Assembly: GCA_020629095.1 (NCBI GenBank) | Contig: JAHDDZ010000001.1 | Coordinates: 1 to 40,542 of the forward strand | Reading direction: 5' to 3' | From: Candidatus Altimarinota bacterium | GTDB taxonomy: Bacteria > Patescibacteriota > Gracilibacteria > UBA4473 | Length of the DNA: 40,542 nt | Part shown: in pieces, positions 8,606-18,886 of the stretch | Numbering within the stretch: position 1 is the first letter of the stretch | Layout: the number at the start of each line of letters is the position of its first letter | Translations under genes and position numbers: made by a program | The notes under the pieces: model-generated | What the model was told of the DNA's origin: nothing | Databases searched by the model: none | The model's input: the letters and a program-made list of their open reading frames with translations, nothing else

Positions 8606-9649
8606 TTAGGCACGAAATTGGGCATGAGCACTTGCCAAATCATGGCTCGTAATGGCACATAAAAGCGATAATTCGGCACACAAAACGCCAGCTCCAATCA
8701 CCATTGCCAGCTCGTCTGCTGCTTTCCCAGTGCCATTTTTTTGAGTCAGCCCAATGGCCTGTAGCCACTTGTTTTGTGTTGGAAGCCTTGTTCCACCGCC
8801 CACTGTGCCGACCAGTATGCATGGCATTTCAATCGTTATTTTAATTCCAGTATCTGTCTGCTGCAGGATGGTCGTGCCAGTTGCGCCATCTGCTATGTGC
8901 GATGGGTCTTGACCAGTAGCAATGAAAACTCCGGCTAGGATATTTGCATGGTGCGCATTTTGGCCAATAGCCTTAGCCAGTCGTGAACCACTTTTGAGCT
9001 TAGCCTCAGAGACTATTAGCAGTTCCTTTGGGGTCGTTTTCAGTACCTCTGACAGCACTTTTATGCTGATCTCTGCACTTGTTTTTATCATGCGCCCACG
9101 GCCGCTTGTGGCATTTCGCAGGCTGGCTTTTTTGTCACTGCACAGGTTTCCGCTCGTCGCAATCAACGTGCCTCCCCATTCTGGGACCAGCAGCTCATCA
9201 CAGATTCGTTTTGCGCTAATTGTAGCCATATTCATGCCCATCGCATCGGCCGTGTCAAACTTCATTTCAACGTGCACAAATTCATCATCTGTTAGTACTT
9301 TTGCCCCGAGCCATTGTGTGTGTAAGCTTGTTTGTTTGATGCATTTTTGAACTGCATCTGCATTTTCTCTAAACCAATTTTCATACCATTCTTGAGACTT
9401 TTTATTTTTAATTTTAAATACTGGTGCACGTGTAATTCCAACTCGTTGTATAGATGAAATAGCCCCACCACAAAGGCTAATTGCTTTTGCGCCGCGGTTG
9501 GCAGATGCAACTAAACAGGCCTCTGTGGTCGCGATCGGCAGAGCATATTTGTTCCCATTTACTTGCATTTCTTTGACCAGCCCAACGGGCAGCTCAACCA
9601 CACCAGATATATTTTCGCAGTTTTGTTCGTATGCGCTCAAATCGCTCAT
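8606..9649 (-). CDS. Class I-type HMG-CoA reductase, minimal catalytic domain
   Basis: Motifs seen: ENISGVVELPVG, TTEACLVAS, DAMGMNM, GTVGGGT and a C-terminal His (SAHAQF). I chose the ATG at 9649 because it forms an ATGA overlap with the upstream stop. An alternative ATG lies at 9676. Confidence 0.88.
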   Translation of the reverse strand: MSDLSAYEQNCENISGVVELPVGLVKEMQVNGNKYALPIATTEACLVASANRGAKAISLCGGAISSIQRVGITRAPVFKIKNKKSQEWYENWFRENADAVQKCIKQTSLHTQWLGAKVLTDDEFVHVEMKFDTADAMGMNMATISAKRICDELLVPEWGGTLIATSGNLCSDKKASLRNATSGRGRMIKTSAEISIKVLSEVLKTTPKELLIVSEAKLKSGSRLAKAIGQNAHHANILAGVFIATGQDPSHIADGATGTTILQQTDTGIKITIEMPCILVGTVGGGTRLPTQNKWLQAIGLTQKNGTGKAADELAMVIGAGVLCAELSLLCAITSHDLASAHAQFRA

Positions 9650-10263
9650 GCTGGCATTATACGCGTCGGCACGCAATTGTCACCCGCAAGCCACTTTTGC
9701 AGCACATTTGGTACCCCGTGAGAGATGTGCACAATGGCCCCCATGGCGGCGCAAGATCTTGCTGCAGCCACCTTTGCAGCGATTCCGCCAGTAGCATCAT
9801 GATTTTTTCTTGCAAAAGAAATGTTATTTTGCAGTTCTGCAATTGGCTTCTTTTCAGTATCAAATAAGCATGCATCGCTTAAAAAAAGAACCCGCTGCGG
9901 CTGAAGCCGTTTGCACAGATGTACCATAACTGCGTCTGATCCAGTTACCTCTTTGGGCTCAATTACCCCACGAGTGAGTTGTCCAGTGGCTGATTTGTCA
10001 TATCGCACAGAGGGTAAATCAAGACCGCATTTTGCGGCTGTTTGCTGAATTTTGCGAGTTAGCTCCACCATATTTTTGTGGCCGACTTCTCTATCATTTT
10101 GCAGCAAAGGCGGGTGCCCCCAGCTACCACCTCCATGCAGAATTATTCCCTTGAAATTACTTGCCGCCAGAACCATAAAAATCCCTTCTAACGCCGCTTC
10201 GTCGTAACTTTTTTCAACCATTTTATCACTAAAAATACTGCCTCCAATTTTAATAATATCCAT
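9646..10263 (-). CDS. ipk: Isopentenyl phosphate kinase (amino-acid-kinase fold)
   Basis: Motifs seen: IKIGGSIFSDK, ILHGGGSWGHP (the IPK His motif), LFLSDACLFD and DATGGIAAKV. The ATG at 10263 overlaps the upstream TGA by 1 nt (TGATG). An alternative TTG lies at 10266. Confidence 0.78.
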   Translation of the reverse strand: MDIIKIGGSIFSDKMVEKSYDEAALEGIFMVLAASNFKGIILHGGGSWGHPPLLQNDREVGHKNMVELTRKIQQTAAKCGLDLPSVRYDKSATGQLTRGVIEPKEVTGSDAVMVHLCKRLQPQRVLFLSDACLFDTEKKPIAELQNNISFARKNHDATGGIAAKVAAARSCAAMGAIVHISHGVPNVLQKWLAGDNCVPTRIMPA

Positions 10264-11243
10264 CAAAAAAGGTGCTGATTTGTTGCAGTTGCTCCCTTTC
10301 CAATTGGCGAGCTGATAATTTTTTCTATACCATCTATTTTGGCTATCGCACTTTCAACAATTTTTTTGTTTTTTACAGGTGTTAAAACGTGCACCGTGCT
10401 GCCAGCATCAAGCGTCCAAGTCACTGAAATGCCATCTTTTTGTAGGTCATAAACAGCGGCAATGATGGCTCCTGTTGTTTGATTTGTATAATTTAAAGAC
10501 GGATTACCGCTCATCATAACGGCATGGAGGGCAAGTGCCTGAGATTCTGAAATGGCGAGAAAAGCACTAAAATCTTGTTGAGAAATAGCGTGCTGAAGTT
10601 GCCTTATTTGTGCCTCACTCATTGTGATTCGGGCTTTTTGCAACGGGCTTTTTGCAGCAAAATCATGCCCTTCGAGCGAGCCAATCTGTTTTGGTTTTGT
10701 GTCTGAAACGGCAATAATATCAACCAAATTCCATTCATTTTCACCTGCTATTTTTTCTGTTTTTCCAGTTTGGAAAAGTGCCCCCCAGCCATCATGAGCA
10801 CTTCTTAGGGCAGAACCACTTCCGGCGATATGCATTAGGTCAATATGCTGCATTGGAGCGATCAGAATAGCGCTGCAAGCCGCGTACCATAGGGCACAAA
10901 CCCCAGACGCAGAAGACGCAATTCCGGCACTCATGGGGAAGTTAAGCTGGCTTTTGGCTTTCCATTTATGGGTTATTTCAGCAGTTTTAGCGATGGCATT
11001 TACCATATCAAAAATCATTTGTGCACGTGCTGAACTAGTTGGGTCAAGCTGTACCTCTTCTCCTGTTTCGAGCTCTATTGTTAATGTATTCTCATCGTAG
11101 TCAGCATCAAAACAAATTGTTGTATGCGCGGTGCAGGAGGCTAAATTCATGCTCAAACTCGGGCTGGCCGGTAGTCGGCCCTGCGCATGGCCCCAGTGCT
11201 TAATGATAGCAATATTGGCCGGAGCAATTGCGCTAGCTTTCAT
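10263..11243 (-). CDS. Mevalonate diphosphate/phosphate decarboxylase homolog (GHMP family)
   Basis: APANIAIIKHWG corresponds to APVNIA.IKYWGK in known enzymes. NFPMSAGIASSASG, GSGSALRS and TLDAGST also match. I chose the ATG at 11243 (ATGA overlap with the idi stop); the track ORF starts at 11273. Confidence 0.85.
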   Translation of the reverse strand: MKASAIAPANIAIIKHWGHAQGRLPASPSLSMNLASCTAHTTICFDADYDENTLTIELETGEEVQLDPTSSARAQMIFDMVNAIAKTAEITHKWKAKSQLNFPMSAGIASSASGVCALWYAACSAILIAPMQHIDLMHIAGSGSALRSAHDGWGALFQTGKTEKIAGENEWNLVDIIAVSDTKPKQIGSLEGHDFAAKSPLQKARITMSEAQIRQLQHAISQQDFSAFLAISESQALALHAVMMSGNPSLNYTNQTTGAIIAAVYDLQKDGISVTWTLDAGSTVHVLTPVKNKKIVESAIAKIDGIEKIISSPIGKGATATNQHLF

Positions 11244-11800
11244 ACTTTTTGCTGATTTATATTTTCTTTCCACCAGTCGCTAAAGGCTTTATTGTGGTGC
11301 AATAAAAGTACTTCCTCTCGGCACCATGGGCTCAGGTGACTCCATTCTATCATCCTATTTTGCAGCAAATTGTTCCAATTTACCCACTGCGTTTTTGCCA
11401 CTTCGTCTGCATTTGGCTTGGGGGCATCTGACAAAGTTCCAACCCAAATTGGGCACCATTCGTGCTCCATGACTTCATCCATAGTGGCCCTATAACTATA
11501 GTTTGGCACCATCTCAATTATGCTTTTTGGTGAAACCCCAAGCTCAAATTGAGCTCTTCGCGTAACGGCATCAGTCATTTTTTCACCAGGTAGCGGGTGC
11601 CCACAAACTGAGTTGCTCCATACGCCAGGCCACGTTTTCTTGCTATGAGATCGTTGTTGCAGCAATAGTTTGCCGTCTGGAGAAAATAAAAAGCAAGAGA
11701 AAGCTTTATGCAGAGGCGTTTTTGAGCTATGAACAGTGGCTTTTAAGGTTGTGCCAATTTCATTCCAATTAGCATCGAGCAGGATGACTTCTTCGTTCAT
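11240..11800 (-). CDS. idi: Type 1 isopentenyl-diphosphate delta-isomerase (Nudix fold)
   Basis: Motifs seen: LHKAFSCFLF, LLLQQRSHSKKTWPGVWSNSVCGHP and EHEWCPIW. Length is 186 aa. Confidence 0.9.
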   Translation of the reverse strand: MNEEVILLDANWNEIGTTLKATVHSSKTPLHKAFSCFLFSPDGKLLLQQRSHSKKTWPGVWSNSVCGHPLPGEKMTDAVTRRAQFELGVSPKSIIEMVPNYSYRATMDEVMEHEWCPIWVGTLSDAPKPNADEVAKTQWVNWNNLLQNRMIEWSHLSPWCREEVLLLHHNKAFSDWWKENINQQKV

Positions 11801-12654
11801 AGGCTGATTATACTCGATAGGTGTGCCACGGCCAGTGGCCCAAAAAAGTACCAGAAGGCAATCATTCCCATAAGGGTGTTTATGACGGGAAGTCTCTTGT
11901 AGACAGCAAAAAGAGTGGAATTACTTTTCCAGCTTGTAAAAATAATAGTTGTATAGACTCCCATTCCAAGGATTCCTGCGAGTAGAGAATATTGCAGAGT
12001 AATCGCAAAAGTCGTCATCCATAAGGCCCACACATACATAAGCGTTCTGTGCTTGCCAAGAGTAGTAGCTGTAGTAGAAAGGCCCGCTTTCGTATCAGCG
12101 GGGATGTCTGGAATAGCACTATATGCATGCATTCCCACCATCATCGACCAAATTCCCACAAATGCAACCCAGTCTGACGGTTCAGTTGAAATAGACCAAT
12201 ATCCTATGAGTGCTGGGCAAGTATACAACACATTGCTAACCGAGTCAAGAAATGGCCGTGCCTTCAGTCGAACTGGCGGAAGAGAGTAGCTGAGTGACAA
12301 AATAAGCCAGCCCGCCCATGCCACCTGCGCAGCTATTGGAGTAATCAGCAGTAGTGGTACAACTGGCAGATGTAAGAGTAAGATCCACCACACCAATGGG
12401 CGCGTTTTACTGCTTTTGTGGCGGTTTTCATATCCATCTTTTTTTGCATTCAGTGCGTCTGTGTCTCGATCACTTATGTCATTTATGCCATATACTAGTA
12501 GATTTGCCGGCAGGGTAAAATATGCCAACCAAAGCCAAAAAGTGGGCGTCCAGAAGTCACCAACAGACTCTGCTCCGGCCGCCCAGCCTACGGCAAATGT
12601 CCCGGCTAAATACCCCCAAAACCGTGGCCGACTGGTCCTCAAAATCCATTTCAT
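11797..12654 (-). CDS. UbiA-family aromatic/polyprenyl prenyltransferase, possibly lycopene-elongase-like
   Basis: The protein is polytopic. It starts with SRPRFWGYLAG. The first Asp-rich motif is YGINDISDRDTDALNAKK and the second is AIPDIPADTKAGLSTTATTLG. It sits directly after crtB and crtI. The family call is firm; the substrate call is an inference. Confidence 0.75.
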   Translation of the reverse strand: MKWILRTSRPRFWGYLAGTFAVGWAAGAESVGDFWTPTFWLWLAYFTLPANLLVYGINDISDRDTDALNAKKDGYENRHKSSKTRPLVWWILLLHLPVVPLLLITPIAAQVAWAGWLILSLSYSLPPVRLKARPFLDSVSNVLYTCPALIGYWSISTEPSDWVAFVGIWSMMVGMHAYSAIPDIPADTKAGLSTTATTLGKHRTLMYVWALWMTTFAITLQYSLLAGILGMGVYTTIIFTSWKSNSTLFAVYKRLPVINTLMGMIAFWYFFGPLAVAHLSSIISL

Positions 12655-14168
12655 GAGAGATCAGTTAATGATGTGAGCATACTACCAGATCGGTCATTTA
12701 TGATGTATTTATAGGCCAATTGACTGCTGAGTAAGCTAATTGGCACTCCGATGCCGGGGTTTGTGCCAGCCCCTGTATACAGCAAATTTTCCACTTTTTT
12801 GCTTTTGGCAGGGGGTCTAAAACATGCCGTTTGCCTCAGTGTATGGGCCAATCCAAGCGCACTCCCACCATATGCGTTATATCTGTCTTTGAAGTCGCTG
12901 ATACTAAAACTTCGCTGAAACACAATTCGCTCGCGGAGGTTTTTTATCGGAAACTTTTCCTCCATATGCGCCAAAACGCGGTCGATTTCACGTGCCCTGG
13001 TGGCATCATCATCGAGTAATTTGGGACTTATTGGCACCAGTACAAATAGGTTTTCATGTCCATCTGGGGCAGTTTCTGGCTCAGTCTTGCTCGGGGCACA
13101 TACATACAAACTTGGCTCAGTTGGATATTTTGGGTTGATAAAAAGTTCATCAAAACCGCCTTTCCAGTCATCTGCAAAAATGAGATTATGGTGGACCAAA
13201 TGATCGCATTTCCCCTTTACCCCAAGATATAAAATGAGTCCACTGGGCGCCCATTTGCGCTTTTTCCAATACGGTTTTGAGTAGGTTCTATGCCGCTTTT
13301 TAGTTATCAGTTGTGTTTCTGTGAAGGCATAATCGGCATTGCTAATGACGATATCAGCATGCATTTCAGTTCCGTTTTGCAGCCGCACGCCCACCGCCTT
13401 TTTGTCTTCTATTAAAATCTCCGCCACTTCTGTGTTCAGCCGTATGTCTGCTCCGTGTTTTTTTGCAATGCCCGCAAACGACTTCATGACCGCGTGCAGA
13501 CCCCCTTTAGGGTACCACACCCCCATGTTGAAATCAATATGACTCATGAGGCTATAGATCGCAGGAGCATCATATGGTGAGGTGCCCAAGAATACCATTG
13601 CGTACTGCAAAATCCGCTGTATATGAGAGTTTTTTGTATATTTTTCTACGTGCTTTGCGAAGCTCGAAAAGACCCCCAGCTCCATTCCCATGCGGGCTGT
13701 GCGCAGGTTTATCAGATCAAAAATACTCTCATAATTCTTGCACATAAAATCACTCTTACTGATTTCATATTTCGTTTTTGCCTTCTCTAAGTACGCCAAA
13801 AGTCGTGGTGTGACACCTTTTTCAAATGCCTCAAAAGTAGGCAAATCTTTCTTCAAGTCACTAAAAATCGTAGTTGGGGGCGTCAGATCATTATTCCCCC
13901 ACCATATTTTATAGGCGGGATCAAGCTGTGTCAGCTCCAGCTGTTCCTCTACCTTTTCACCTAGCAGTGCATAAAAATCTGCAAATAAATCTGGCATTAA
14001 ATACCAACTGGGTCCCATATCAAAACGAAACCCATCAGCCTCGAAAAAACCTCCACGACCGCCTACGCACTCATTTTTTTCCACCACTGTCACCTGCGCC
14101 CCAGATCTTGCCAGTAAGGCTGCAGCTCCAAGCCCTCCGATGCCACTGCCGATAATTATTGTTTTCAT
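12651..14168 (-). CDS. crtI: Phytoene (or diapophytoene) desaturase, CrtI family
   Basis: The FAD motif reads IIIGSGIGGLGAAALLARSG..VVEKN..GGR. The C-terminus has YTGAGTNPGIGVP. I chose the ATG at 14168 (MKTIIIGSG), which forms an ATGA overlap with the crtB stop. The track ORF starts at 14198. Confidence 0.85.
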   Translation of the reverse strand: MKTIIIGSGIGGLGAAALLARSGAQVTVVEKNECVGGRGGFFEADGFRFDMGPSWYLMPDLFADFYALLGEKVEEQLELTQLDPAYKIWWGNNDLTPPTTIFSDLKKDLPTFEAFEKGVTPRLLAYLEKAKTKYEISKSDFMCKNYESIFDLINLRTARMGMELGVFSSFAKHVEKYTKNSHIQRILQYAMVFLGTSPYDAPAIYSLMSHIDFNMGVWYPKGGLHAVMKSFAGIAKKHGADIRLNTEVAEILIEDKKAVGVRLQNGTEMHADIVISNADYAFTETQLITKKRHRTYSKPYWKKRKWAPSGLILYLGVKGKCDHLVHHNLIFADDWKGGFDELFINPKYPTEPSLYVCAPSKTEPETAPDGHENLFVLVPISPKLLDDDATRAREIDRVLAHMEEKFPIKNLRERIVFQRSFSISDFKDRYNAYGGSALGLAHTLRQTACFRPPAKSKKVENLLYTGAGTNPGIGVPISLLSSQLAYKYIINDRSGSMLTSLTDLS

Positions 14169-15013
14169 GAAAAAAGGGCTAATCGGAGTTTTTGCCACTT
14201 GCTAAGCGAATAATTGCTGTGGTGCACATGGTACTCAGACTGCTCAATTTTGTCTAAATATGCCGAATAAAGCTGGCTCGCGGCTCGAACAGCCCACCGC
14301 CCACGAGGGTGCAATTTCTCTATTGCAGGGGCTGCTTCCGCATATAATTTTCTGGCACGTGCAGCCTGGAATTGCATAAAATCTGCCCATCCTTTTGGAT
14401 ATTCTTTTTTTGCAATATGTGCCTCCGTTATACCCCATTTTGCCATTTCGTCAGCCGGTAAATAAATTCGCCCGAGGTCAAAATAATCCTCTGAAATATC
14501 TCGTAAAAAATTTGTGAGTTGCATGGCATATCCCAGTTTTGCAGCCGCATTAAGTGTTTCTTTATCTGGAGGAGATCTATCTGCCATGCCAATGGCGTAG
14601 GTCATGAGCACGCCCACCGCGGCAGCAGATCCGTCCATATATGTACACAGATCGCTATAATTTGCATATCGATTTTTATGGGTGTCCATGCGCATTGCGG
14701 CCAAAAAAGAACTAGCGTGTTTTGGTGGCACTTTTAGCTCTTGGTGCAAACCTGCAGCTGCCAGGAGCACGGGGTGCGTTGTTGAGTCCACTCCTATTTG
14801 CGCCTTTTCCCATGCAGCCTCCCAGGCGCTCAGGGACTGTTTTTTGTTTTGTATTTCAGGGCTATCCACTATGTCATCTGGCAATCGAAAAAAGGCATAG
14901 ATGATGTAGGTACGGTCACGAAGCCACTTTGGAAATAGACGCGTTGCACTTGCGTAGGTTGGTCCACGATTGTGCATTATGGCTTTACAAAAGGCAATAT
15001 CATGCTTTTTCAT
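14165..15013 (-). CDS. crtB: Phytoene/squalene synthase family enzyme (CrtB/CrtM type)
   Basis: Asp-rich motifs FFRLPDDIVDS and NFLRDISEDY are present, plus YMDGSAAAVG. Length is 282 aa. Confidence 0.85.
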   Translation of the reverse strand: MKKHDIAFCKAIMHNRGPTYASATRLFPKWLRDRTYIIYAFFRLPDDIVDSPEIQNKKQSLSAWEAAWEKAQIGVDSTTHPVLLAAAGLHQELKVPPKHASSFLAAMRMDTHKNRYANYSDLCTYMDGSAAAVGVLMTYAIGMADRSPPDKETLNAAAKLGYAMQLTNFLRDISEDYFDLGRIYLPADEMAKWGITEAHIAKKEYPKGWADFMQFQAARARKLYAEAAPAIEKLHPRGRWAVRAASQLYSAYLDKIEQSEYHVHHSNYSLSKWQKLRLALFS

Positions 15014-15948
15014 GCGGTTCGATTCATTAAAAAGTGAAGCAAATCAAAGAGCGAGTTATGCTGTTTTTCACTCAGAGGGCAATTCTTTAGAAGTGTTAAA
15101 GCTGTTTCATGGTGCTTTTGTGCTACTTCTTGGGTGGCGGCATATGCGCCTATTTCGGCATAAAATGCATGAATTTGCTCTATGTTTTTTGTATCTAAAA
15201 TGGCTTTGTGCTTCTCTGGTTTTTGTATTTGTGCATAGGCTGTATAGTGCGTTGCCTTTCCCTCCATGATATCATTAAGCACAGGTTTTCCCACTTCCTC
15301 ACTGTCAGACTGGGTGTCTAGCAGGTCATCCATCAACTGAAATGCCGTTCCCACAGCAGTGCCCCATGCCTCTGCCCAAGCCAGTTGTTGATTCGTTGTT
15401 TTAGTGGCCATAAGGCCCAACTGTAAAGGGCGTGTCACAGAGTATGTTGCTGTCTTTAAATAGGTTTTTTGCAGCACATTCTCCATGCTGCTTTGCGGTG
15501 TTAATTGGGCATCGAGCACTTGTCCAGAGAGGACTTCGCGCTGAAGTGCGCTCCATGTTTTTTGCGCAGCTTCATGGGGGTTTGTTTTTGAAAAATACTC
15601 ATGAGAGAGCATCAGCAGCCAGTCACCAGACAGCAAAGCAAGGTCATTTCCAACCTCTGTATGAACCGTTTTGCTTCCTCGCCGCAGGGGGGAATTGTCC
15701 ATGATATCATCATGTACTAAGGCAAATCCATGCAACAGCTCAAGTGCAATTTGTAGGTTATTTCTAGAAAAATCATCTGCGCCAATGGCCGCAAGATATG
15801 GACGAATACGTTTCCCTCCACGGAGAACTAAATCAGCTGCAGGGGCAAATGCAACCTTGGCAGAGTCATGCGGTAATGCCAAAAGGCTATCAGAAAGGGC
15901 ATCTTTAAGGGTTTTTTGAAAGATATTTGCGTATGGAATTATTTTCAT
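15010..15948 (-). CDS. Polyprenyl diphosphate synthase (GGPP/FPP synthase type)
   Basis: The first Asp-rich motif is LVHDDIMDNSPLRRG and the second is FQLMDDLLD. I chose the ATG at 15948 (MKIIPYANIF, 312 aa) because it forms an ATGA overlap with the preceding small gene. The track ORF extends to 16104. Confidence 0.85.
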   Translation of the reverse strand: MKIIPYANIFQKTLKDALSDSLLALPHDSAKVAFAPAADLVLRGGKRIRPYLAAIGADDFSRNNLQIALELLHGFALVHDDIMDNSPLRRGSKTVHTEVGNDLALLSGDWLLMLSHEYFSKTNPHEAAQKTWSALQREVLSGQVLDAQLTPQSSMENVLQKTYLKTATYSVTRPLQLGLMATKTTNQQLAWAEAWGTAVGTAFQLMDDLLDTQSDSEEVGKPVLNDIMEGKATHYTAYAQIQKPEKHKAILDTKNIEQIHAFYAEIGAYAATQEVAQKHHETALTLLKNCPLSEKQHNSLFDLLHFLMNRTA

Positions 15949-16205
15949 AAAAGTGGCATCAAGGCAGGGGCATGGACTATTCTTCCATCTGGCAGTATAT
16001 TTTTTCGCATCATAATAATCTTCACTCTTTGTCCTTCCGCGCATGTATATCCTGGCATGATTGGAAAAATATGCTTTTTGGCTTCCAATTGAGTCAATGC
16101 CCAAGTACCACTATTTGAGGTCGTCACATGCAAAATGGTTCCACTCTTGCCTATAAACGCTTTATCTTTTTGCCACAAACGGTTTTGCTGCGTAGGGGAT
16201 ATCAT
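15945..16205 (-). CDS. Small DUF35/OB-fold acyl-CoA-associated protein homolog (86 aa, no zinc ribbon)
   Basis: This is the C-terminal 86 aa of track ORF 15945..16364, starting at the ATG at 16205. That ATG forms an ATGA overlap with the thiolase stop. The sequence is MISPTQQNRLWQKDKAFIGKSGTILHVTTSNSGTWALTQLEAKKHIFPIMPGYTCAEGQRVKIIMMRKNILPDGRIVHAPALMPLL. It has the G.G.v...T / v.L.e / iG..V pattern of the DUF35 OB domain. Its position after HMGCS and thiolase matches the archaeal gene order. Confidence 0.5.
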   Translation of the reverse strand: MISPTQQNRLWQKDKAFIGKSGTILHVTTSNSGTWALTQLEAKKHIFPIMPGYTCAEGQRVKIIMMRKNILPDGRIVHAPALMPLL

Positions 16206-17308
16206 GCTTTTTTGACTATGTGAATAACAACGGTTCCGCCGGTTCCCCCCACATTGTGTGCCAGACCTGTTTTGACTCGGTCTGTTTGGTTTCTGGCAAG
16301 GGTTATAAGCTGTCGCACGCCGGTTGCGCCAACCGGGTGCCCAAAAGCTTTTAACCCTCCCCATGGGTTTATAATTATTTCAGATTCTCTTTGTAGCATT
16401 GTCTCTAAAAGTGAATGCGCTTGCCCTCTTTTTGCTAGCCCGAGGTCCTCCACTGCAAGAGAAAGTGATATAGAAAAACAGTCATGCAAGCAGTATTGGT
16501 CAATATCAGAAATGCTTATTTCAGCCTGATTTAGGGCATTAGCGAGAACCATGCTTGTTGTCAAAATCTGTGTTAAATCTGCCCGATTTGAAAGCCCTGG
16601 AGGACCACTTTTGGTGGCACTGGCAGTGATTTGTGTGGAGGACTTTTTGGCACTCAGCACAAGGGCGGCGGCACCATCTGTGATGGGGGCTGCGTGTAGC
16701 AGTCGCATGGGGCTGCTCACCATCTGGCTTGATTCAATTTGTTTATTTGAGAAGTTTTTATGAAACTGCGCCAAAGTATTTTCAGTTGCCTGGCGGTGCA
16801 TCAGTTGCATTCCAGGGCTAAAAACTGTTGCATCGTGCCCATGCTTTTTCATATAGGCCTGTGCGATGAGGGCATAGAGACCACCAAAAGTGATGCCGGT
16901 TGAGCTCTCCGCCTCAGTTGTCGCTCCCATCAGCGCTTGGTTGACGGTTGCACTAGAGTGATCTGTCATTTTTTCTGTGCCGATGACAAGAGCATTTGTA
17001 GCAAATCCAGCAAAGACATCCTTCCATCCTAAATGCACAGCAATACCACCAGAAGCGCAAGCGGCCTCCGTTCTGATACAAGCTGCAGAAATGCCCAACT
17101 TTTCTGCAATAATAGCACCTAGGTGTCCTTGCTCATCAAGGGCAATTCCGAGCATATTTCCAACATAGAGCACATCAATATCAGCGGGACTAATACCACT
17201 TTCAGAGAGCGCTTCAGCTCCCGCGAACACCCCCAAGTCAACCGCGGAAAGGCCATCATGCCGCCCAAATTTTGTGCATCCAGTTCCGTTTATAAAGACA
17301 GAATTCAT
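16202..17308 (-). CDS. Archaeal-type acetyl-CoA acetyltransferase (thiolase)
   Basis: The start reads INGTGCTKFGRH. The catalytic Cys context is TEAACASGG. The C-terminus has HPVGATG and NVGGTGG. Length is 368 aa. Confidence 0.9.
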   Translation of the reverse strand: MNSVFINGTGCTKFGRHDGLSAVDLGVFAGAEALSESGISPADIDVLYVGNMLGIALDEQGHLGAIIAEKLGISAACIRTEAACASGGIAVHLGWKDVFAGFATNALVIGTEKMTDHSSATVNQALMGATTEAESSTGITFGGLYALIAQAYMKKHGHDATVFSPGMQLMHRQATENTLAQFHKNFSNKQIESSQMVSSPMRLLHAAPITDGAAALVLSAKKSSTQITASATKSGPPGLSNRADLTQILTTSMVLANALNQAEISISDIDQYCLHDCFSISLSLAVEDLGLAKRGQAHSLLETMLQRESEIIINPWGGLKAFGHPVGATGVRQLITLARNQTDRVKTGLAHNVGGTGGTVVIHIVKKA

Positions 17309-18306
17309 GAAAGTGGGCGGTTTATTTCATTATATGCTTGTGCGTCAAGCACCTGCATGGCGGCTATCTGTTCTCGAATAGGCATTGTTTTACACCCACT
17401 TTCAGCTTTTTTTGTGACCACAAATGCATCAGCCCCAGCCCCAGAGCCGTAACTGCAGCAAAGGATTTTGTCTCCAATTTTTGCTTCATCAAGGGCAGCG
17501 CAAAGCCCCAAAGGTATACAGGCTGCATAGGTATTTCCAATCAGCGGAACCAGCCACCCAGCAGCTAATTGTGCTCTTGTTATCACCATTTTTTGTGCTA
17601 CTTTGAGGGGGAGTTTTGCGTTTGGCTGGTGCAAGATTACATGCGCATAATCTGCTATTTTGCTTTGTGTTTCATTCAGCAATAACTGCAGTGCGCCGCA
17701 CACAACCTCTATGTAGGTCTCATTGCTATGCGCCCCAGCATGGATTGGATGATCTGCCTTGTTACTGCGCCAAAAGTCTAGTCTATGAACTGAATAGCTC
17801 TGCCAAGATTCTATGGTGGCAATAGGCGTTTTACCCACTAAAAAAGCGGCAGCACCTGCCCCAGCCGTGTAGTGCAGTGGGTCCCCAACTTTGCCAGTTG
17901 CACAGTCCGAGGCAACCGCAATTCCACTTTGGCTGCGGCCTGTCGCTACATGGCACAGGGCCATGTCGAGTGCGACGGTTCCGGCTTTGCAGGCAAATTC
18001 AACATCAGCCGTTTGGCAGTTTGTATCCATGCCAATTCCATCGACAATCATACTGCTAGTTGGGTTTACTGCATAGAGGGGCGTTTCGCTCCCGAAAAAA
18101 AGACATCCGGCTTTCTGTGTCGTTAGGCTACTTGCGGCTCGCAACCCAAGTGTCAAACTGTCAGTCGCCGTGCCTGGAATAGATTTTTGTGAAACACCCA
18201 GCCCAGCGTACAGCGTTTTTGGCTGCCCGGCTAACTCCGCAAGCAGTTCTTGTTGTGCACAAAAACCAGGAATCGCCACCCCATATTCTTGTATTCCAAT
18301 TGCCAT
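17305..18306 (-). CDS. Archaeal-type HMG-CoA synthase
   Basis: VEFACKAGT holds the catalytic Cys. LHQPN and IGNTYAAC are also present. Length is 333 aa. Confidence 0.88.
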   Translation of the reverse strand: MAIGIQEYGVAIPGFCAQQELLAELAGQPKTLYAGLGVSQKSIPGTATDSLTLGLRAASSLTTQKAGCLFFGSETPLYAVNPTSSMIVDGIGMDTNCQTADVEFACKAGTVALDMALCHVATGRSQSGIAVASDCATGKVGDPLHYTAGAGAAAFLVGKTPIATIESWQSYSVHRLDFWRSNKADHPIHAGAHSNETYIEVVCGALQLLLNETQSKIADYAHVILHQPNAKLPLKVAQKMVITRAQLAAGWLVPLIGNTYAACIPLGLCAALDEAKIGDKILCCSYGSGAGADAFVVTKKAESGCKTMPIREQIAAMQVLDAQAYNEINRPLS

Positions 18307-18833
18307 TACACCAAAAAGTGCACAAGCGTGTTGTCTGCTGTCAGCTGCGCTTTTGAAAAAGCAAATTCCCCCTCGTGTTTTGTTGCGCCAGATTCGGCCT
18401 GCACAGTCGGCATCAGCGCACCATCACCACAAATAAGTGCGACCGCAGGGCTAATTTTATCAATCAATTCATCCACTTTTTTGGCATCAAAATCCTTGCC
18501 TACCGCAATAATTGCCACCGCAATATTTTCTCCTACCTCCTCTAGCATCGCAGCATTTGGCACGGCGGTCAGTTGACCAAAGTGGCAAATGGTCCCATCA
18601 GCAGATGTGACCTTATAAATAGTATTTTTTTCACTCGAAGAAACGCCCTTTAGTAAAATATTCCCAATTTCAAATTCACCTGGAAGAAATATATTTCGCC
18701 CGCCTCCAGTAGTATTTTCAGCTCGGTCATGCCATGTTGTTAAAACAGAATCGCCAGTTGCAGCACTCATTCCGACAACTCCCTCTGTGCACGTCACAAC
18801 AAATCCGAAATCATCTTTTGCCATTATTTTCAT
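18306..18833 (-). CDS. MBL-fold (Lactamase_B_3-like) protein with degenerate metal-binding motifs
   Basis: MKIMAKDD...LPGEFEIGNILLKGVS..KNTIYKVTSADGTICHFGQL..LEEVGENIAVAIIAVGKD...ALICGD follows the layout of small MBL-fold hydrolases (PGEYE..G, N.iy.ie.dG..i.H.GDLG, PVGG, PMHY). The HxHxDH and later His/Asp positions are replaced. I chose the ATG at 18833; the track ORF starts at 18881 and would overlap the holA start. Confidence 0.4.
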   Translation of the reverse strand: MKIMAKDDFGFVVTCTEGVVGMSAATGDSVLTTWHDRAENTTGGGRNIFLPGEFEIGNILLKGVSSSEKNTIYKVTSADGTICHFGQLTAVPNAAMLEEVGENIAVAIIAVGKDFDAKKVDELIDKISPAVALICGDGALMPTVQAESGATKHEGEFAFSKAQLTADNTLVHFLV

Positions 18834-18857
18834 TGTGCTGTCTTTTATGTTGCCTAA

Positions 18858-18886
18858 ACTATAGTCGACCCTCCACCACATGGCAA
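18858..18886 (-). promoter_or_regulatory. Candidate promoter for the 12-gene isoprenoid operon
   Basis: On the minus strand: TTGCCA (18886->18881), a 17-nt spacer, then TATAGT (18863->18858). The -10 lies 24 nt upstream of the ATG at 18833. Confidence 0.4.

Follow-up and report, generated by a model that had tools for sequence, protein, structure and literature searches.

The small gene and its borders

We examined a 40,542-nt stretch (the window) of contig JAHDDZ010000001.1 from a Candidatus Altimarinota bacterium, whose whole assembled genome amounts to 760 kb and is 73% complete, and focused on a small open reading frame (ORF) on the minus strand, lying between the genes for an archaeal-type acetoacetyl-CoA thiolase and a polyprenyl diphosphate synthase (Table 1). 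The 86-residue protein that it encodes, which we call P0001, very probably descends from the DUF35 family of scaffolding subunits, as argued below. Both borders of the ORF are ATGA overlaps. On the minus strand, the ATG of P0001 (16205-16203) overlaps the TGA stop codon of the thiolase (16204-16202) in ...AAAGC-ATGA-TATCC..., and the ATG of the prenyl synthase (15948-15946) overlaps the TGA of P0001 (15947-15945) in ...CTTTT-ATGA-AAATA.... Translation between these two junctions gave 86 residues and a stop: MISPTQQNRLWQKDKAFIGKSGTILHVTTSNSGTWALTQLEAKKHIFPIMPGYTCAEGQRVKIIMMRKNILPDGRIVHAPALMPLL. The same junctions had been proposed in an earlier reading of the window from its letters alone (the sequence-only reading); the minus-strand sequence and the translation bore them out, and every peptide quoted in that reading is present in the 86-residue product.

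Two longer ORFs cover part of the same stretch. The first, of 139 residues (15945..16364), is the P0001 frame extended 159 nt back into the thiolase gene. The second, of 364 residues (15010..16104), starts at TTG and extends the frame of the synthase by 156 nt, overlapping the P0001 ORF by 160 nt in a different frame. Both lack support because the thiolase and synthase models fit the shorter bounds and because the codon score is negative for each over-extension (-0.05 per codon for the 52 residues added to the synthase). In Pfam and NCBIfam searches, thiolase family models reached the last residues of the thiolase, and polyprenyl synthase models were co-linear with the 312-residue form from residue 11 onward (PRK10581, residues 11-247 versus model positions 11-262; IdsA, residues 37-311 versus model positions 34-327), while the extra 52 residues of the 364-residue form matched no polyprenyl synthase model in either collection. 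The 139- and 364-residue ORFs are therefore over-extensions, as the sequence-only reading had held, and the 86-residue ORF between the ATGA overlaps is real. The accompanying claim that the gene is masked held for the longest-ORF track but not for public gene calls, which include the small gene at both orthologous loci described next. An exact-sequence look-up in a public protein collection was negative for each of the window's four alternative gene products.

We observed that the P0001 frame had the best codon-usage score of the six frames and exceeded all 364 off-frame control windows. A close homologue of the thiolase occurs in just two further genomes of the same family, G031 and G021, which belong to different genera, and in both of them the order HMG-CoA synthase, thiolase, small ORF is kept. 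There the ORF encodes 92 residues (G031) or 97 residues (G021) and overlaps the thiolase gene by 7 nt; both products align end to end with P0001 (pairwise BLASTP E values of 3e-8 and 2e-6), and public gene callers annotate both, without a Pfam domain. The size and position of the ORF are retained at three loci of 39%, 47% and 60% G+C. The gene 3' of it varies: it is a prenyl synthase in the window and IDI in G031, and G021 has no gene there on the strand concerned. A search with P0001 in 60 relatives gave nothing significant, its best weak match (E = 0.007) being the true G031 orthologue, and A1, the joint profile of P0001 and its two orthologues, retrieved only the three known members when searched across the class in 400 genomes. 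Scanning metagenomes with the window's thiolase alone revealed no close relative.

Table 1. Features of the window discussed in the text
Feature	Length	Coordinates	Strand	Basis or remark
P0001, putative zinc-ribbon-less, loop-shortened DUF35-family protein	86 aa	15945..16205	-	orthologues, hhalign, AlphaFold, Foldseek
Archaeal-type acetoacetyl-CoA thiolase	368 aa	16202..17308	-	Pfam Thiolase_N, Thiolase_C, Thiolase_C_1
Archaeal-type HMG-CoA synthase	333 aa	17305..18306	-	NCBIfam NF003274 293 bits (cut-off 244); TIGR00748 HMG_CoA_syn_Arc 246 bits
Polyprenyl diphosphate synthase	312 aa	15010..15948	-	PF00348 at residues 36-252; true start ATG 15948, not TTG 16104
Operon	twelve genes	8606..18881	-	overlapping or abutting start/stop codons throughout

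Kinship with the DUF35 family

Direct searches with P0001 did not reach DUF35. At E values up to 1, hmmscan returned no PF01796 or PF12172 match from Pfam and nothing relevant from NCBIfam; the orthologues (P0009 and P0010) did not match PF01796 either, and PF01796 had no match in a six-frame search of the whole assembled genome at E values up to 10. A match to one of these two hidden Markov models (HMMs) was the check that the sequence-only reading had proposed for its DUF35 assignment, and by that measure alone the assignment would fail. Sequence searches of the PDB with the single protein and with a three-sequence profile gave chance matches only (PsaD, RACK1), and a word-index protein search found nothing with P0001 and only the two known orthologues with the A1 profile. 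An exhaustive search of 1.8 billion representatives produced six matches, all of them long proteins built of repeats (of the CarboxypepD_reg or BRCA2 kind, or forming a beta-propeller). This similarity comes from a ~30-residue motif (VTTxxSGxW...PxxxGYT) whose contributions add up across the repeats, and we judged it to be a convergent beta-hairpin and rejected homology. Residues 18-54 of P0001 share the motif SG..x.VTTxxSGxW...L....I.P...GYT with the transthyretin-like repeats of P0003 and P0006 (CarboxypepD_reg), probably by convergence.

Because the direct searches failed, we used the thiolase as the anchor for a survey of loci. A thiolase-alignment scan, restricted to one genome per species, yielded 80 loci, and the ORF 3' of the thiolase was sorted into three groups. 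Canonical DUF35 proteins of ~130 residues with two CxxC motifs occupy this slot at 34 loci, most of them archaeal (DPANN and others); some Chloroflexota and Bacillota-type variants are also included. At 15 loci of the candidate phyla radiation (CPR) type (Beckwith-, Davies-, Shapiro-, Parcubacteria and others), the slot holds a protein of ~100 residues without CxxC. The third group, from Peribacteria, has an ORF of ~310 residues that carries the same OB domain as its N-terminal portion. Across all loci, the thiolase is the constant neighbour of the small ORF. PF01796 matched 13 of the 15 zinc-less CPR proteins and PF12172 none of them; an HMM of the archaeal proteins detected 14 of the 15 at E values from 1e-10 to 1e-23 and the remaining one, the 90-residue loop-less protein of locus L034, at 6e-6, and hhalign linked the zinc-less set to the archaeal set at 99.9%. 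Databases already call these CPR proteins "OB-fold domain-containing protein" or "DUF35 domain-containing protein". Other organisms, too, have a zinc-less DUF35, as predicted from these comparisons, beside an archaeal-type thiolase; among the sampled CPR loci this arrangement is the rule.

At ten loci with a CPR-type thiolase followed by a zinc-less DUF35 (L022, L025, L029, L034, L037, L050, L054, L057, L067 and L087), the records are titled "uncultured Gammaproteobacteria" or "Pseudomonadales ... binchicken", and these taxonomic labels look doubtful.

The survey supplied the intermediates through which P0001 could be compared with DUF35. With hhalign, A1 matched the set of 15 zinc-less CPR proteins end to end over 79 columns (Prob 92.4%, E = 5e-7) and the Peribacteria OB domains about equally well (Prob 91.7%, E = 7.6e-7); the latter domains are PF01796-positive in the three fusion proteins scanned. 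Against archaeal DUF35 itself, the match was limited to the OB part (Prob 57%, E = 1e-4). Control comparisons, reversed and 30 column-shuffled, scored at most 15.4, compared with 40.2 and 30.6 for the real ones. We also ran the plain A1 HMM against 1314 ORFs from 80 independent metagenome loci and obtained nine matches at E values up to 0.0033; each of the nine was the DUF35-type ORF that follows the thiolase, and the alignments spanned almost the full length.

An alignment of 18 family members showed a shared plan: the N-terminal helix carries M-x-SP-x3-(W)R, strand 1 has G-x-x-G-x-(I/V)-x3-T, strand 4 holds a basic R, and D-G-x-(I/V)-x-(Y/H) lies close to the C terminus. Four residues (R9, G22, T28 and R67) do not vary among the 18 sequences, and the identity of P0001 to the zinc-less CPR proteins is 14-30%. 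P0001 and its two orthologues are without the hairpin loop of ~10 residues, VPPxGFxxxxPY, and so are a few others, namely the 90-residue helix-OB protein L034:1199-1471 and the similar L110:2621-2794, which is cut by a contig end.

Two AlphaFold2 models gave the same fold. The first, built from the 18-sequence alignment, had a mean pLDDT of 92.1, with a helix at residues 4-15 and strands at 21-30, 33-40, 60-70 and 76-84. The second used the three Pfam-negative orthologues only, as a control against leakage from PF01796-positive rows, and reached a pLDDT of 87.6 with a fifth strand at 43-49. P0001 is thus predicted to be an N-terminal helix followed by a five-stranded OB barrel spanning residues 21-84. 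For both models, the top Foldseek matches in the PDB were 6esq_E and 6esq_G (TMq 0.59-0.61, root-mean-square deviation 3.0-3.3 Å over 82 columns), the DUF35 chains of the complex that acetoacetyl-CoA thiolase and HMG-CoA synthase form in Methanothermococcus thermolithotrophicus; PhlB, MucC, the DUF35 domain of ChsH2, Trf and BbsA came next, and most of the top ranks went to DUF35 chains. The sequence-only reading had seen in P0001 a fit to the OB domain of DUF35 and had looked to structural similarity as a further check. The fit is now supported by profile-profile links to PF01796-positive zinc-less proteins in the same slot, and DUF35 subunits, led by 6ESQ, are the best matches of the two models. 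Overall, we consider it very probable that the 86-residue ORF is a real gene of DUF35 descent.

The missing ribbon and related proteins

P0001 contains one Cys in its 86 residues and no CxxC. In the alignments, its helix leads straight to strand 1, at the place where the archaeal proteins carry a CxxC...CxxC insert of ~30 residues, so the absence of the rubredoxin-like ribbon from this protein, already remarked upon in the sequence-only reading, stands. PF12172 had no match above cut-off anywhere in the assembled genome, so no separate gene in the assembled part provides the ribbon.

Among the surveyed proteins, the ribbon appears to have been lost by several routes: by deletion in CPR, by Cys replacement in Iainarchaeum and, in a Thermomicrobiaceae record, in an OB-only form. 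In the Iainarchaeum proteins (DPANN; L040:4973-5377, L045:5260-5661 and L048:5499-5903), a segment of ribbon length is kept and all four zinc-ligand Cys are replaced, as in EGNKNTETGEEFFPARVVDPKGGRK versus IGCKCETCGTPYFPDRKICPKCRRK; the metagenome loci L154, L159 and L164 are alike in this respect. Judging from these alignments, a zinc-free DUF35 was reached here a second time and independently, by Cys replacement. The Thermomicrobiaceae protein (L076:5158-5400) is ~80 residues long, and its N-terminal helix is absent.

Among the closest counterparts of P0001 are the zinc-less proteins of ~100 residues from Patescibacteria, such as Daviesbacteria MBI2596542.1, an "OB-fold domain-containing protein", and Beckwithbacteria AKM79870.1, which UniRef names "DUF35 domain-containing protein". 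They share with P0001 the slot, the helix-OB architecture without a ribbon and three motifs, namely the N-terminal SP..(W)R, the G.xG..x..T strand and the C-terminal DG.I.Y/H strand. Unlike this set, in which 13 of 15 are PF01796-positive, P0001 and its orthologues are PF01796-negative, and P0001 is without the VPPxGFxxxxPY loop. The 86-97-residue proteins appear to form a subfamily that no model recognises, with three members in the collections searched, and more reduced than the annotated zinc-less proteins of ~100 residues.

The Peribacteria fusions (L023, L027, L031, L036 and L080) resemble P0001 in their slot after the thiolase, in their zinc-less OB domain and in coming from related Peregrinibacteria-type genomes. 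Whereas P0001 ends right after the OB barrel, they add a C-terminal PF00625 P-loop kinase domain, guanylate-kinase-like and ~190 residues long. The fusion proteins measure ~305-315 residues (L023:5100-6041, L027:5120-6031 and L036:4930-5865) and also occur at the metagenome loci L111, L115, L117, L118 and L123. Such a fusion could represent either a housekeeping Gmk that became joined by chance or a P-loop kinase that docks on the mevalonate complex. When the window's thiolase was compared with those of L023, L027, L031, L036, L080, L015 and L016, the P0001-type and OB-kinase-fusion lineages had two small deletions in common relative to archaeal and other CPR thiolases, one of ~7 residues near position 221 of the window's thiolase and one of ~6 residues near position 340. 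Because these deletions are shared, we suggest that the P0001-type and OB-kinase-fusion variants of DUF35 arose in one Peregrinibacteria-type lineage. We also looked for thiolase indels that track the loss of the ribbon, and found only these deletions shared by Peregrinibacteria-type groups, which are uninformative about ribbon contact.

A proposed scaffold and its alternatives

The genes around P0001 form an operon whose first half runs in the order MBL-fold protein, HMG-CoA synthase, thiolase, P0001, prenyl synthase, CrtB and CrtI, and whose second half continues, in order, with genes for a UbiA prenyltransferase, NUDIX/IDI, an MVD-like decarboxylase, an IPK-like kinase and HMG-CoA reductase. 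The HMG-CoA synthase and thiolase genes share an ATGA overlap. No Shine-Dalgarno motif precedes any of the twelve operon genes, ATG 16205 included; because all twelve overlap or abut without one, the junctions of the small ORF follow the operon norm. The thiolase scored 318 bits with PRK06064 and 275 bits with AcCoTHIOL_METTL of NCBIfam, each under its cut-off, and shares 42% identity with its counterparts in G031 and G021. From their sequences, the partner thiolase and HMG-CoA synthase belong to the archaeal type, the one that enters into the DUF35 complex. Archaeal acetoacetyl-CoA thiolase (AACT) and HMG-CoA synthase (HMGS) are general in CPR (Hoshino and Gaucher, PMC6107057).

The first cistron of the operon (18306-18881, minus strand) encodes the MBL-fold protein, which has a weak Lactamase_B_3 match of 29.6 bits and an ambiguous start at either ATG 18881 or ATG 18833; no MBL-fold gene lies ahead of the HMG-CoA synthase gene in G031 and G021. 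On another contig of the same genome (G000:C70:14203-14421, minus strand), a 288-residue ORF has a GHMP-kinase N domain that scores 46.5 bits, above cut-off, and is probably the mevalonate kinase missing from the operon.

Another close counterpart is found in the thiolase/HMG-CoA synthase/DUF35 complex of M. thermolithotrophicus (PDB 6ESQ/6ET9), which Voegeli et al. in 2018 reportedly found to channel acetoacetyl-CoA. As with that DUF35, to which both models come closest in structure, P0001 combines an N-terminal helix with a C-terminal OB barrel, and its gene lies directly after an archaeal-type thiolase, near HMG-CoA synthase, in the mevalonate pathway. Unlike it (~130 residues), P0001 has 86 residues, has the ribbon wholly deleted and one OB hairpin loop missing, and comes from a bacterial host; the sequence similarity between P0001 and archaeal DUF35 emerges in profile-profile comparison only, at 57% directly and 92% via intermediates. 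Other top structural matches, PhlB of the Pseudomonas PhlABC acyltransferase (5M3K), MucC of Streptococcus MucABC (9VBT), the ChsH2 DUF35 domain (6OK1) and BbsA (7PXP), are DUF35 scaffolds wedged between thiolase-fold subunits. Unlike P0001, they have a zinc ribbon and serve secondary metabolism or degradation, not the mevalonate pathway (PMC12960953).

DUF35 has been described as a scaffolding subunit that makes extensive contacts to both enzymes within a dimer of heterotrimers (PMC6996347, PMC12960953). We reasoned that, given this role and the archaeal-type partners found here, the same scaffold role without zinc is the most likely one, and we consider it probable that P0001 is a minimal zinc-free DUF35 acting as the third subunit that holds thiolase and HMG-CoA synthase together. 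P0001 would bind at the thiolase-HMG-CoA synthase interface and tether both enzymes, and the acetoacetyl-CoA from the unfavourable thiolase condensation would pass directly to HMG-CoA synthase, so that both complex formation and channelling would proceed without zinc. The product would feed the mevalonate pathway and, here, the carotenoid genes in the same operon. Translation of P0001 is probably coupled to that of the thiolase via the ATGA overlap, an arrangement that would favour making the partners in matched quantities.

Several observations weigh against this proposal, beginning with the failure of the Pfam and NCBIfam models noted above. Among genuine in-frame windows of the genome, the codon-usage score of P0001 ranks no higher than the 0.5th percentile. 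The three orthologues are only 24-28% identical, compared with 39-44% for the neighbouring enzymes, and the G031 and G021 orthologues are not detectable to each other by BLASTP; the difference in identity suggests that the small protein is under weak constraint and evolves much faster. The Foldseek E values are modest (2.6e-3 to 5e-3, none at or below 1e-3), and generic OB folds, ribosomal S12 and IF1 among them, turn up with comparable E values, though with a much larger deviation; the predicted structure is consistent with the sequence evidence and would alone be insufficient to carry the DUF35 claim. With 73% of the genome assembled, a canonical DUF35 could be encoded on the unassembled part. 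Finally, every structurally characterised DUF35 protein binds zinc (PMC6996347), so a function without the ribbon is conjectural.

Some of these weaknesses would be expected if P0001 were a decaying DUF35 relic, open and perhaps translated by coupling while no longer a scaffold, with thiolase and HMG-CoA synthase acting without a third subunit. The low codon-usage score, the very fast divergence, which leaves two of the orthologues mutually undetectable, and the loss of ribbon, hairpin loop and any Pfam match would all fit. However, stops or frameshifts would be expected in at least one lineage, whereas the frame is open with the same length, start position and thiolase-stop overlap in three genera spanning 39-60% G+C; moreover, four residues are invariant throughout the 18 members, and AlphaFold is confident from three sequences alone. 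We therefore regard decay as unlikely. Quite unlikely, too, is a DUF35-derived OB protein with another partner or role, which might be the polyprenyl synthase, another operon enzyme or, as for Sulfolobus Trf, a nucleic acid. Recruitment of DUF35 proteins has been described for several complexes and even for mRNA release (PMC6996347, PMC12960953), the OB-guanylate-kinase-like fusion of Peribacteria indicates that the module can be linked to other enzymes, and the P0001 gene does sit between the thiolase and the prenyl synthase. It is the thiolase, however, that is the constant neighbour at all loci while the downstream gene differs, and the best structural match is the DUF35 of the mevalonate complex. 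That there is no gene at all, the stretch being either the 5' part of a polyprenyl synthase read from TTG 16104 or an untranslated spacer with an ORF open by chance, is scarcely credible: the 364-residue ORF does exist, ATG 16205 has no Shine-Dalgarno motif and no version of the product has an identical database protein, but that motif is absent across the whole operon, the 52-residue extension has a negative codon score and matches no synthase model, a 250-nt spacer would be out of character in an otherwise spacer-free operon, and the small ORF has profile matches, a confidently predicted fold and orthologues, whose conservation already argues against such a reading.

With P0001 taken as a third subunit of the thiolase/HMG-CoA synthase complex, our comparisons suggest that the zinc ribbon may be dispensable for scaffolding these two enzymes. 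More tentatively, and with somewhat less than even confidence, we propose that the 86-97-residue proteins are the smallest working DUF35 scaffolds, each consisting of a helix and a trimmed OB barrel, metal-free, and that the ribbon is unneeded for a channelling complex. The OB module might also be a docking adaptor, since it is naturally fused to a P-loop kinase in sister lineages.

By tying thiolase to HMG-CoA synthase, DUF35 makes the unfavourable first step of the mevalonate pathway work. A ribbon-free clade stands beside the same two enzymes throughout the sampled CPR, and the 86-residue form is its most reduced representative; the N-terminal helix and the OB barrel are the parts that may suffice for the scaffold, which makes P0001 a candidate for use as a very small scaffold in engineered mevalonate pathways. 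Mining based on the Pfam family PF01796, as in PMC12960953, overlooks the P0001 subfamily, and the mevalonate genes of CPR, including archaeal AACT and HMGS, have been described without mention of DUF35 (PMC6107057, PMC4736985). To accounts of the CPR mevalonate pathway that name only AACT and HMGS (PMC6107057), P0001 and its relatives would add a third subunit.

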